Below, in pieces: positions 57,971 to 61,497 of a stretch of DNA of 64,000 nt. Numbering within the stretch: the first letter of the stretch is position 1; each line of letters starts with the position of its first letter. The notes under the pieces are model-generated. The model was not told where the DNA came from. It saw only the letters and a program-made list of their open reading frames with translations, and did not search any database. A program made the position numbers and the translations under genes. Origin of the DNA: Escherichia coli 042 (lineage in GTDB: Bacteria > Pseudomonadota > Gammaproteobacteria > Enterobacterales > Enterobacteriaceae); assembly GCF_000027125.1 (NCBI RefSeq), contig NC_017626.1; one strand, 5' to 3'.

Positions 57971-60403
57971 ATGAGTGTGATTGCGCAGGCAGGGGCGAAA
58001 GGTCGTCAACTGCATAAATTTGGTGGCAGTAGTCTGGCTGATGTGAAGTGTTATTTGCGTGTCGCGGGCATTATGGCGGAGTACTCTCAGCCTGACGATA
58101 TGATGGTGGTTTCCGCCGCCGGTAGCACCACTAACCAGTTGATTAACTGGTTGAAACTAAGCCAGACCGATCGTCTCTCTGCGCATCAGGTTCAACAAAC
58201 GCTGCGTCGCTATCAGTGCGATCTGATTAGCGGTCTGCTACCCGCTGAAGAAACCGATAGCCTCATTAGCGCTTTTGTTAGCGATCTGGAACGCCTGGCG
58301 GCGCTGCTCGACAGTGGTATTAACGATGCGGTGTATGCGGAAGTGGTGGGCCACGGTGAAGTGTGGTCGGCGCGCCTGATGTCTGCGGTGCTTAATCAAC
58401 AAGGGCTGTCAGCGGCCTGGCTTGATGCCCGAGAGTTTTTACGCGCTGAACGCGCTGCGCAACCGCAGGTTGATGAAGGGCTTTCTTACCCGTTGCTGCA
58501 ACAGCTACTGGTACAACATCCGGGTAAACGTCTGGTGGTGACCGGGTTTATCAGCCGTAACAACGCCGGTGAAACGGTGCTGCTGGGGCGTAACGGTTCC
58601 GACTATTCCGCGACACAAATCGGTGCGCTGGCGGGTGTTTCTCGCGTAACCATCTGGAGCGACGTCGCCGGGGTATACAGTGCCGACCCGCGTAAAGTGA
58701 AAGATGCCTGCCTGCTGCCGTTGCTGCGTCTGGATGAGGCCAGCGAACTGGCGCGTCTGGCGGCTCCCGTTCTTCACGCCCGTACTTTACAGCCAGTTTC
58801 TGGCAGCGAAATCGACCTGCAGCTGCGCTGTAGCTACACGCCGGATCAAGGCTCCACGCGCATTGAACGCGTGCTGGCCTCCGGTACTGGAGCGCGTATT
58901 GTCACCAGCCACGATGATGTCTGCTTGATTGAGTTTCAGGTGCCCGCCAGCCAGGATTTCAAACTGGCGCATAAAGAGATCGACCAGATCCTGAAACGTG
59001 CCCAGGTGCGTCCACTGGCGGTTGGCGTGCATAACGATCGCCAGTTGCTGCAATTTTGCTACACCTCAGAAGTCGCTGACAGTGCGCTGAAAATCCTCGA
59101 CGAAGCGGGATTACCTGGCGAACTGCGTCTGCGTCAGGGGCTGGCGCTGGTGGCGATGGTTGGTGCAGGCGTCACCCGTAACCCGCTGCATTGCCACCGC
59201 TTCTGGCAGCAACTGAAAGGCCAGCCGGTCGAATTTACCTGGCAGTCCGATGACGGCATCAGCCTGGTGGCAGTACTGCGCACCGGCCCGACCGAAAGCC
59301 TGATTCAGGGGCTGCATCAGTCCGTCTTCCGCGCAGAAAAACGCATCGGCCTGGTATTGTTCGGCAAGGGCAATATCGGTTCCCGCTGGCTGGAACTGTT
59401 CGCCCGTGAGCAGAGCACGCTTTCGGCGCGTACCGGCTTTGAATTTGTGCTGGCAGGCGTGGTGGACAGCCGCCGCAGCCTGTTGAGCTATGACGGGCTG
59501 GACGCCAGCCGCGCGTTAGCCTTCTTCAACGATGAAGCGGTCGAGCAGGATGAAGAGTCGCTGTTCCTGTGGATGCGCGCCCATCCGTATGATGATTTAG
59601 TGGTGTTGGACGTTACCGCCAGCCAGCAGCTTGCTGATCAGTATCTCGATTTTGCCAGCCACGGTTTCCACGTCATCAGCGCCAACAAACTGGCGGGAGC
59701 CAGCGACAGCAATAAATATCGCCAGATCCACGACGCCTTCGAAAAAACCGGGCGTCACTGGCTGTACAACGCCACCGTCGGTGCGGGCTTGCCGATCAAC
59801 CATACCGTGCGCGATCTGATCGACAGCGGCGATACTATTTTGTCGATCAGCGGGATCTTCTCCGGCACGCTCTCCTGGCTGTTCCTGCAATTCGACGGTA
59901 GCGTGCCGTTTACCGAGCTGGTGGATCAGGCGTGGCAGCAGGGCTTAACCGAGCCTGATCCGCGTGATGACCTTTCCGGCAAAGACGTGATGCGCAAGCT
60001 GGTGATTCTGGCGCGTGAAGCGGGTTACGACATCGAACCAGATCAGGTGCGCGTGGAATCGCTGGTGCCTGCCCATTGCGAAGGCGGTAGCATCGACCAT
60101 TTCTTTGAAAACGGCGATGAACTTAACGAGCAGATGGTGCAACGGCTGGAAGCGGCCCGCGAAATGGGGCTGGTGCTGCGCTACGTGGCGCGTTTCGATG
60201 CCAATGGCAAAGCGCGTGTGGGCGTGGAAGCGGTGCGTGAAGACCATCCGCTGGCATCACTGCTGCCGTGCGATAACGTCTTTGCCATCGAAAGCCGCTG
60301 GTATCGCGATAACCCTCTGGTGATCCGTGGGCCTGGCGCGGGGCGCGACGTCACCGCAGGGGCGATTCAGTCGGATATTAACCGCCTGGCGCAGTTGTTG
60401 TAA
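57971..60403 (+). CDS. metL: Bifunctional aspartokinase II / homoserine dehydrogenase II
   Basis: 810-aa product; 2-nt gap after metB. Confidence 0.95.
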   Translation: MSVIAQAGAKGRQLHKFGGSSLADVKCYLRVAGIMAEYSQPDDMMVVSAAGSTTNQLINWLKLSQTDRLSAHQVQQTLRRYQCDLISGLLPAEETDSLISAFVSDLERLAALLDSGINDAVYAEVVGHGEVWSARLMSAVLNQQGLSAAWLDAREFLRAERAAQPQVDEGLSYPLLQQLLVQHPGKRLVVTGFISRNNAGETVLLGRNGSDYSATQIGALAGVSRVTIWSDVAGVYSADPRKVKDACLLPLLRLDEASELARLAAPVLHARTLQPVSGSEIDLQLRCSYTPDQGSTRIERVLASGTGARIVTSHDDVCLIEFQVPASQDFKLAHKEIDQILKRAQVRPLAVGVHNDRQLLQFCYTSEVADSALKILDEAGLPGELRLRQGLALVAMVGAGVTRNPLHCHRFWQQLKGQPVEFTWQSDDGISLVAVLRTGPTESLIQGLHQSVFRAEKRIGLVLFGKGNIGSRWLELFAREQSTLSARTGFEFVLAGVVDSRRSLLSYDGLDASRALAFFNDEAVEQDEESLFLWMRAHPYDDLVVLDVTASQQLADQYLDFASHGFHVISANKLAGASDSNKYRQIHDAFEKTGRHWLYNATVGAGLPINHTVRDLIDSGDTILSISGIFSGTLSWLFLQFDGSVPFTELVDQAWQQGLTEPDPRDDLSGKDVMRKLVILAREAGYDIEPDQVRVESLVPAHCEGGSIDHFFENGDELNEQMVQRLEAAREMGLVLRYVARFDANGKARVGVEAVREDHPLASLLPCDNVFAIESRWYRDNPLVIRGPGAGRDVTAGAIQSDINRLAQLL

Positions 60404-61497
60404 TCCTGAGCCAGAGAAAGCAGTATTTGCGTAACGCGCCCTGCGGAAAGCGGGGCGCTGTGAGTAAATACTGCTTGTTTATGTAGCCAGTCGATAAAAT
60501 GTCTGCTGGTTGCTAAAGAGAGCATTTCTGCTTTGCTACTCTTTCCGCCCGTTAATGCACATACCATTTTACGATTTTTTCCCTGAACCCAGAGTTGCCA
60601 CTGATTTTTCCACCAGCCGTGATAAGTTTTTCCCTGAAAACGCCAGGGCATATTATCGGTATCGTCAGCTATTTCCTCTTCAATAAACCAAATTTCACCT
60701 TGCTGTTGGCGAAACAGTTCTGCCCAGGCCGTAATAATCGCACCTCTTAAAAAACACTCGTGTGAAATTACATGTGTTTTTACTGTAGGGAATAAAATAT
60801 TCAGTACTCTGAAATGCCCGTGTGCAGTGATAACCGGACGCAGAATAATACCTTTAGCATTGCGTTTGAGCGCTGCGCTGCCATACTGAATTTCATCAAA
60901 CTGACTGCGGCGTAGAAATTGTGCTTCGCGCATATCAACGCGTTGTACAATATTACTCTCGTGTAACTCTGGTTCTGCATTTCCTCTGTATCGATAATGC
61001 AGACTTTCTCCAGCCTGATGCTGCGTGTAATTAGTAGAAAGATGAAGAATATTACCGCGAAGAGCATCAAAACTGATTAAAACATACAGTTTCTGCCCGC
61101 TGCTGACTCCCTGAAATGGCACGAGAAAAGCAACCGTTTCGATTATTTCGGGAGTCGTTATTTCTTTCTGATATTGTTTGGGTGTCCATACTTTTTTGCA
61201 GTTACGGCATTGAATGCGTTGCGAACCCTGTGGATTGTGACCATAACAAATCGTCTCTGTGCCATAACATACCGGGCAAAAATGGCCTTTCTCTGTTGTA
61301 AAAGTAGATAAGTGAACTGTCAACCAGTCACGAAATTGTTGCTCGTCAAACAACGGCGGGTAACTGCCACATGCCCGACAGTGCAATGCCGGATAACCCA
61401 GTCGATAGTCGGGCCAGCTATAATCTGTCGATGTTGGCTGCCCTAAATTACGGCAACCAAACGACTTGCAGGCATTAATCGTAAACAGAGTCGACAT
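60367..61497 (-). CDS. Hypothetical Cys-rich protein with two N-terminal CxxC...CxxC zinc-ribbon-like motifs; 3' end questionable
   Basis: 376-aa ORF in visibly AT-rich DNA inserted between metL and metF. N-terminus has C10-x4-C15, C40-x2-C43, C74-x2-C77 and C97-x2-C100. The last 45 or so codons run through the metL terminator hairpin and 37 nt into the metL coding sequence on the opposite strand. Confidence 0.55.
   Translation of the reverse strand: MSTLFTINACKSFGCRNLGQPTSTDYSWPDYRLGYPALHCRACGSYPPLFDEQQFRDWLTVHLSTFTTEKGHFCPVCYGTETICYGHNPQGSQRIQCRNCKKVWTPKQYQKEITTPEIIETVAFLVPFQGVSSGQKLYVLISFDALRGNILHLSTNYTQHQAGESLHYRYRGNAEPELHESNIVQRVDMREAQFLRRSQFDEIQYGSAALKRNAKGIILRPVITAHGHFRVLNILFPTVKTHVISHECFLRGAIITAWAELFRQQQGEIWFIEEEIADDTDNMPWRFQGKTYHGWWKNQWQLWVQGKNRKMVCALTGGKSSKAEMLSLATSRHFIDWLHKQAVFTHSAPLSAGRVTQILLSLAQDYNNCARRLISD
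60417..60474 (+). terminator. Long hairpin downstream of metL (candidate terminator)
   Basis: agcagtattt ... aaatactgct 10-bp outer stem with an inner GC-rich imperfect stem (gcgccctgc / gcggggcgc); lies inside the 3' end of the reverse-strand ORF 60367..61497. Confidence 0.5.

Follow-up and report, generated by a model that had tools for sequence, protein, structure and literature searches.

Overlapping bidirectional terminators between convergent genes have been reported in Escherichia coli (Ju et al. 2019, as relayed in bioRxiv 10.1101/2022.10.23.513370), and, in the preprint's account of them, a single hairpin lies in the zone shared by the two genes and need not resemble a textbook intrinsic terminator. 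Overlapping 3' untranslated regions (UTRs) and excludon-type antisense arrangements (PMC7821165) also bring convergent 3' ends together, with a potential for double-stranded RNA (dsRNA) and mutual interference, and canonical intrinsic (Rho-independent) terminators place a GC-rich stem-loop and a U-rich run after a stop codon. Elements of all three meet at the end of metL in a 64,000-nucleotide (nt) stretch of E. coli 042 (contig NC_017626.1; hereafter the window), where a reverse-strand open reading frame (ORF) of 376 amino acids (aa) ends inside metL; the genes here are metB, metL, the ORF, a 517-aa UshA-like 5'-nucleotidase gene and metF. As in the bidirectional terminators, the pair is convergent and one hairpin occupies the shared zone; in contrast to those terminators as the preprint relays them, the hairpin lies wholly in the conserved coding sequence (CDS) of one partner, 17-36 codons ahead of its stop, and is known here from sequence alone. 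Unlike the overlapping 3' UTRs, the CDSs themselves overlap, by 37 nt, and the structure apparently limits read-through instead of exploiting it. The hairpin begins 15 nt past the metL TAA and is followed by a U-rich run, as in a canonical intrinsic terminator, but it has a long, three-tiered stem broken by internal loops. The arrangement is of a known kind, a convergent overlap with a shared terminator, and provides a well-controlled example of it and no new mechanism.

On the reading favoured here, which is given a probability of about 0.72, metL and the ORF are an old convergent pair, the ORF is intact, and a terminator hairpin is built into its coding sequence. The two genes would have had overlapping 3' ends for a long time, the conserved core of the ORF ending at Tyr366-Asn367 and being followed by nine metL-antisense codons until the stop. 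Because the intergenic space is gone, the metL termination signal, a long hairpin at 60418-60476 with a U-rich tail, would have been placed inside the ORF coding sequence, where it would terminate or stabilise the metBL transcript and possibly halt polymerases coming from the opposite side. The features concerned are these.

57971-60403, plus strand: metL, aspartate kinase/homoserine dehydrogenase II, stop codon TAA at 60401-60403 (from the ORF list and the RefSeq annotation of identical arrangements).
60367-61497, minus strand: the 376-aa ORF, annotated 'cytoplasmic protein', intact and conserved, with a pair of Cys4 zinc-ribbon motifs and, after them, an RNase-H-like domain of DDE-transposase/integrase fold.
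60367-60403: convergent overlap of metL and the ORF, 37 nt, holding on the minus strand Y366, N367, the tail NCARRLISD and the stop codon (from the sequence).
60397-60402, minus strand: codons of the invariant Tyr366-Asn367, the family's last conserved residues, which sit on metL's final Leu codon and stop codon.
60418-60476, plus strand: three-tier hairpin with inner stem GCGCCCUGC/GCGGGGCGC, in ORF codons 341-360; probable metL terminator.
60475-60484, plus strand: U-rich tail after the hairpin, TTGTTTATGT, 7 T in 10 (from the sequence).

A preliminary description of this DNA had placed the ORF stop codon within metL, which the sequence bears out, and other E. coli genomes have this overlapping CDS in their RefSeq annotation. 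Within the overlap a third codon position of one gene is also a third position of the other, and the sites that vary there among E. coli alleles, 60382 and 60385, are both metL third positions. The description had also assigned the last 35 or so ORF codons to a palindrome; the palindrome is real, but it spans about 20 codons, encoding residues 341-360. The hairpin is separated from metL by residues 361-365, and residues 366-376 with the stop codon overlap metL, the C terminus reading ...DYNNCARRLISD.

The description further held that such a C terminus was unlikely to be native: the gene would have been inserted beside metL, and the insertion boundary would have removed its true 3' end, leaving a C-terminally altered remnant that reads through metL's terminator. 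The last nine residues do come from metL antisense, the tail does vary between junction types, and K-12-type genomes lack the segment and have a sharp left boundary just past the metL stop. However, the core of the protein is complete. A wider search turned up family members across the Enterobacteriaceae; in alignments of 23 and later 34 of them, Tyr366 and Asn367 are invariant, and beyond these two residues the tails, 2-36 aa long, are unrelated and different in every context. From at least four other genomic contexts, homologues can be aligned gap-free over the hairpin-encoded residues 341-360 as far as Tyr366-Asn367, and tblastn matches in 36 species mostly stop at residue 367-368. Because the tails vary only after the invariant Tyr-Asn, the hairpin-encoded residues are part of the family's conserved C-terminal core; metL antisense supplies just the nine-residue tail NCARRLISD, and only this tail depends on context.

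Structure prediction and substitution patterns agree with a complete protein. An AlphaFold model had a predicted local distance difference test (pLDDT) score of 40 with the 23-sequence alignment and of 79 with the 34-sequence alignment (predicted template modelling score 0.84); in the latter, made with AlphaFold2, residues 330-370 form confident helices (pLDDT 88-94) and residues 373-376 are disordered (pLDDT below 50). The ratio of nonsynonymous to synonymous substitution rates (dN/dS) is 0.11-0.31 against ten other alleles, far from relaxed, the frame is intact in at least 1180 E. coli genomes and in other genera, and none of the conserved C-terminal residues has been lost relative to the 34 sequences; tests for a remnant or pseudogene thus came out negative. 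Because the core runs to Y366-N367, the C-terminal model is confident and dN/dS is low, the ORF is complete, conserved and under purifying selection. The description's alternative suggestion, that the stop might differ in related strains, fared better: a divergent E. coli allele, found in what is here called the long form of the locus, encodes 374 aa and ends ...YNESLTPSC. In one strain, E. coli 2018-05-2CC (L053), the ORF is annotated as a pseudogene without its N terminus, and the hairpin region beside metL is kept.

Comparison with K-12-type genomes defines the segment that those strains lack.

60405-63409: segment missing from K-12-type E. coli (ORF core and 5'-nucleotidase gene), where K-12 instead has some 200 unrelated nt.

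This comparison confirms the sharp left boundary right after the metL stop, but not an insertion by way of it. The order metL, ORF (convergent), 5'-nucleotidase gene (divergent), metF is found in Klebsiella pneumoniae, K. oxytoca, K. spallanzanii, Kosakonia and Phytobacter, and again in many Citrobacter, Superficieibacter, Pseudocitrobacter, E. whittamii and cryptic Escherichia, with nucleotidases 87-98% and metL 90-99% identical to those of the window. A test for a genomic island accordingly came out negative, the gene order being common to seven genera, and a search for flanking inverted or direct repeats or terminal repeats around the cassette of ORF and nucleotidase gene found none. Vertical descent predicts such an order across genera; therefore the locus is not read as an insertion. 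Because other enterobacterial genera have the gene order in common, it is most likely that K-12-type strains lost the cassette; a relic of it was looked for in the K-12 replacement sequence and none was found, which lends no support either way. The metL terminators of K-12 and of the long form are, moreover, unrelated sequences, a further point against a remnant that reads through metL's terminator.

Among complete E. coli genomes, 1182 of 5426 contain the hairpin segment, in one copy each; about 1180 have the arrangement of the window, and in another 660 or so there is a second match, divergent at about 83% nucleotide identity. Two matches to the ORF and hairpin region in the E. coli search lie on records classed as plasmids. 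The long form, examined in one of the genomes with the divergent match, ECAMP047, consists of metL, a tsx-like gene, two 5'-nucleotidase genes, the ORF, another 5'-nucleotidase gene and metF. Its ORF allele adjoins a 5'-nucleotidase gene and not metL, and aligns with the window protein through residue 367. Such a cluster between metL and metF has been described as GR31 in extraintestinal pathogenic E. coli (ExPEC) strains, in a paper that does not discuss the ORF (PMC12928451). GR31 and the window have in common the chromosomal site and the same family of UshA-like 5'-nucleotidase genes; they differ in that GR31 is the long form, with Tsx and three nucleotidases, and that its ORF allele, 76% identical, stands apart from metL and has a tail of its own.

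The junctions between metL and the ORF fall into three types. In type A (Escherichia, Pseudocitrobacter) the Tyr-Asn codons sit on the metL stop and the overlap is 37 nt; in type B (Klebsiella, Kosakonia, Phytobacter) there is a 7-nt spacer and a 26-nt overlap, with the tail A-x-LTA-x-AP; and in type C (Citrobacter, Superficieibacter) the ORF reads through a spacer of 46-112 nt that has its own hairpin or a sequence like the repetitive extragenic palindromic (REP) elements. Several Citrobacter tails (L031, L034, L036, L037, L041) come from reading through spacer sequence that looks REP-derived in translation, for example ...PDKRKRHPATQ... and ...LPGGAAAYRAYG...; the protein seems able to bear tails of any sequence. 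Sequence comparison gives type A as type B minus 14 nt, and a deletion between two GTTGTAA repeats would yield the window sequence exactly while sparing the metL stop and the Tyr-Asn codons. The Escherichia-type junction is best read as derived from the Klebsiella-type junction, with its 7-nt spacer, by a 14-nt deletion between these repeats; such a deletion in the Escherichia/Pseudocitrobacter lineage is also the most likely cause of the nine-residue tail, the sole altered part of the protein. The ORF of Pseudocitrobacter cyperus (L005, P0049) looks mosaic: in its middle it is like the long-form allele of E. coli, in its last ~70 residues like the short form, a pattern suggestive of recombination anchored in metL.

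The age of the overlap can be judged from cassettes located elsewhere, for example in the vicinity of kdsA or of mtfA. Past the Tyr-Asn codons of these off-site copies, the DNA can be matched to the final metL codons in antisense, the register being that of type B, with alignment z-scores of 11-18 in Klebsiella sp., 7-11 in E. albertii, 5-6 in a second Citrobacter copy and about 3 in Pluralibacter; stringent (+2/-3) local alignment missed most of these metL fossils, and softer scoring recovered them. The off-site cassettes thus carried along a piece of the metL 3' end, now decayed. The fossils show that the overlap is older than those copies and ancestral, and from the sequences the ORF-metL overlap is older than the split of the enterobacterial genera. 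Two cassettes, one at metL and one elsewhere, occur in E. coli SCPM-O-B-8794 (L018 and L026), Escherichia sp. MOD1-EC7003 (L020 and L046) and Citrobacter sp. wls619 (L037 and L047). With a full core, purifying selection, cross-genus synteny and an ancestral overlap all against it, the reading of the ORF as a cut remnant is largely refuted and is regarded as very improbable.

If the ORF is an intact old neighbour of metL, the hairpin within it has to be explained. Its palindrome arms, at 60418-60444 and 60450-60476, are 27 nt long and 78% complementary around a 5-nt loop. The metL-sense RNA folds at -45.4 kcal/mol (z = -5.9), with none of 200 shuffled sequences as stable; compared by strand, the fold is -41 kcal/mol in the metL sense and -30 kcal/mol in the ORF sense (z -6.1 vs -4.5), G-U pairs favouring the former. 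The structure follows the junction. When the 84 nt upstream of the Asp-Tyr-Asn codons were folded in each of 36 species-level loci, z was -2.5 to -6.6 for type A, -3.4 to -5.4 for Klebsiella and -0.9 to +2.4 for loci with a spacer or at other sites. It fell below -2 in 8 of the 11 loci where the ORF abuts metL and in none of the 25 others (Fisher 5e-6, uncorrected for phylogeny), and in 150-nt stretches the median was -4.1 in abutting loci against +0.2 in the others (Mann-Whitney 6e-6, likewise uncorrected; 3e-5 to 6e-6 over the fold comparisons made). A three-tier consensus structure from the 11 abutting sequences is common to Escherichia and Klebsiella, with two base pairs that have undergone compensatory changes.

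A hairpin in a coding sequence may, of course, have no role at the RNA level; the codons chosen for a conserved peptide (SAPLSAGR...QILL), or a recent sweep or recombination event, could create it as a by-product. One arm consists of codons (AGR, QILL) that are conserved family-wide for protein reasons, and independent lineages in the sample are few. The other arm, however, needs lineage-specific residues, A343, V344 and P349 in Escherichia and the SAL codons in Klebsiella, that are found only where the ORF abuts metL; the compensatory changes between the two genera and the lack of an unusually stable fold in all 25 other loci are also at odds with a by-product. Diversity bears on the same question. 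Six E. coli alleles differ at 6.4% of all sites but at only 1 of 128 in 60386-60513, and residues 331-367 have no synonymous differences, against synonymous divergence (dS) of up to 0.29 elsewhere. This uniformity may reflect a recent recombination tract; yet the adjacent metL 3' region is normally diverse (13 of 167 sites), and the low diversity of the hairpin is for that reason considered local. A by-product is accordingly judged improbable.

The single variable site in 60386-60513, 60456, occurs in three states, C, T and G, with which residue 348 is Ala, Thr or Pro; in the metL sense a G-U pair is retained with T, and pairing is broken with G. The inner stem varies only there, and the outer stem is mismatched in some alleles. 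Stretches near the 3' end of the metL coding sequence (60337-60347 and 60354-60361) are complementary to the 5' arm of the inner stem (60435-60446), so that an alternative pairing is possible. An Rfam scan of 60200-61700 gave no match. Origin of the hairpin from a dispersed repeat, a REP element or a miniature inverted-repeat transposable element (MITE) was considered and ruled out: the window and each genome have just one copy of it, and homologues can be aligned to it codon by codon.

The preliminary description had likened the hairpin to a metL terminator, and this the comparative data fit, the structure being specific to abutting loci and common to Escherichia and Klebsiella. A stable GC-rich stem-loop stands soon after the metL stop, and the convergent genes have one hairpin region in common in which both strands fold. 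Where the ORF does not abut metL, other structures are present: the Citrobacter spacer has a separate GCCCUC/GAGGGC hairpin and T-tract, and the E. coli long form has classic terminators downstream of metL. The Klebsiella counterpart of the U-rich tail, TCTGTTTTTC, was flagged by a simple terminator scan. Because the hairpin is confined to loci in which the ORF and metL abut, varies little, has compensatory pairs and precedes a U-rich tail, it is probably a metL transcription terminator or 3'-end stabiliser, and may be bidirectional.

Several observations weigh against this assignment. The window hairpin was missed by the simple scan, and its U-tract is interrupted (UUGUUUAUGU, 7 U in 10); the pattern scan did pick up the counterpart in Klebsiella, which has UCUGUUUUUC. 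The hairpin-positive loci span just two or three clades, so that the association statistics overstate independence, and Kosakonia and Phytobacter abut metL without this hairpin, their structures being placed differently. The antisense strand folds somewhat better in control loci too, making the strand asymmetry partly compositional. Finally, a U-rich run follows the hairpin in the ORF sense as well, and ORF transcripts ended there would lack a stop codon.

On another reading the hairpin acts chiefly on expression of the ORF, through premature termination or pausing, as an RNase III site in dsRNA formed with metL read-through, or as a protein-binding DNA palindrome. For the main E. coli allele the ORF-sense fold, too, reaches significance (z -4.5), and UUUCUCU comes after it; hairpins of this sort serve in collision-type bidirectional terminators of convergent genes (bioRxiv 10.1101/2022.10.23.513370), and RNase III acts on overlapping 3' UTRs (PMC7821165). 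The ORF-sense structure is, however, weak or absent (z -0.4 to -1.9) in E. whittamii, E. sp. MOD1 and P. vendiensis, where the metL-sense structure persists. Dependence on abutment implicates metL, and ending the ORF mRNA ahead of its stop codon would do harm. A role chiefly in ORF expression is thus rated unlikely, and action on metL preferred. A fuller scenario, in which the spacer was first reduced to 7 nt or fewer, the metL terminator was then rebuilt by selection within the neighbour's conserved C-terminal helices through amino-acid-changing substitutions (in Klebsiella and in Escherichia/Pseudocitrobacter), and the host protein is an undescribed, transposase-derived zinc-ribbon regulator of CRP-controlled nucleoside-scavenging genes, can be put forward only tentatively.

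What is known of the ORF protein and its partner bears on the last part of that scenario.

61630-63183, plus strand: 517-aa UshA-like metallophosphatase/5'-nucleotidase, the divergent partner of the ORF in every context examined.
61498-61629: 132-nt divergent control region, with a palindrome CAACGA-N10-TCGTTG at 61505-61526 and a CRP-type site TGTGA-N6-TCACA at 61555-61570.

The spacer between the ORF and the nucleotidase gene is 132-133 nt long and conserved across genera and contexts where measured. Its CRP-type site is perfect (TGTGATTACTCTCACA), the sole other perfect TGTGA-N6-TCACA site in the window being at 16949-16964, and the region also includes an element with TGCAA and a conserved TTTCAGAACGTAA box. 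No Pfam family extends over the 376-aa protein, the zinc ribbon alone giving sub-threshold matches to InsA, IS1 and IS1595 models; PADLOC had no match, and in PHROGs the zinc ribbon alone was matched. A sequence search of solved structures with the protein returned nothing useful, and a literature search by its accession found nothing. The protein does have the RNase-H-like catalytic-core fold of IS1/IS1595-like DDE transposases, and D144, D201, E202, E247 and E274 are invariant in the 34-member alignment. It differs from IS1/IS1595-type and domesticated DDE transposases in having neither a Pfam DDE match nor terminal inverted repeats, and from IS1/IS1595-type transposases in occurring in one or two copies per genome (two as whole cassettes) in conserved synteny with nucleotidase genes. 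A distant homologue of 478 aa (L055 5001-6437; L056) is divergent from genes for a NupC-type nucleoside transporter and a PNP/UDP phosphorylase, a setting that provides a second tie between the family and nucleoside scavenging. It is a reasonable guess from these sequences that the ORF encodes a transposase-derived regulator of nucleoside scavenging.

The locus has a lesson for annotation, in that a CDS entering a neighbouring gene ought not to be flagged as truncated before the end of family conservation has been located. It also presents one stretch of DNA that is doubly constrained, by protein helices encoded on one strand and by what is probably a terminator hairpin on the other, for which sister lineages with a spacer or another location serve as built-in controls. 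The ORF itself belongs to an uncharacterised family with zinc ribbons and a DDE-transposase fold that is recurrently paired with nucleotidase, Tsx or nucleoside-transporter genes, and that occurs in K. pneumoniae and about one third of E. coli, including ST131.

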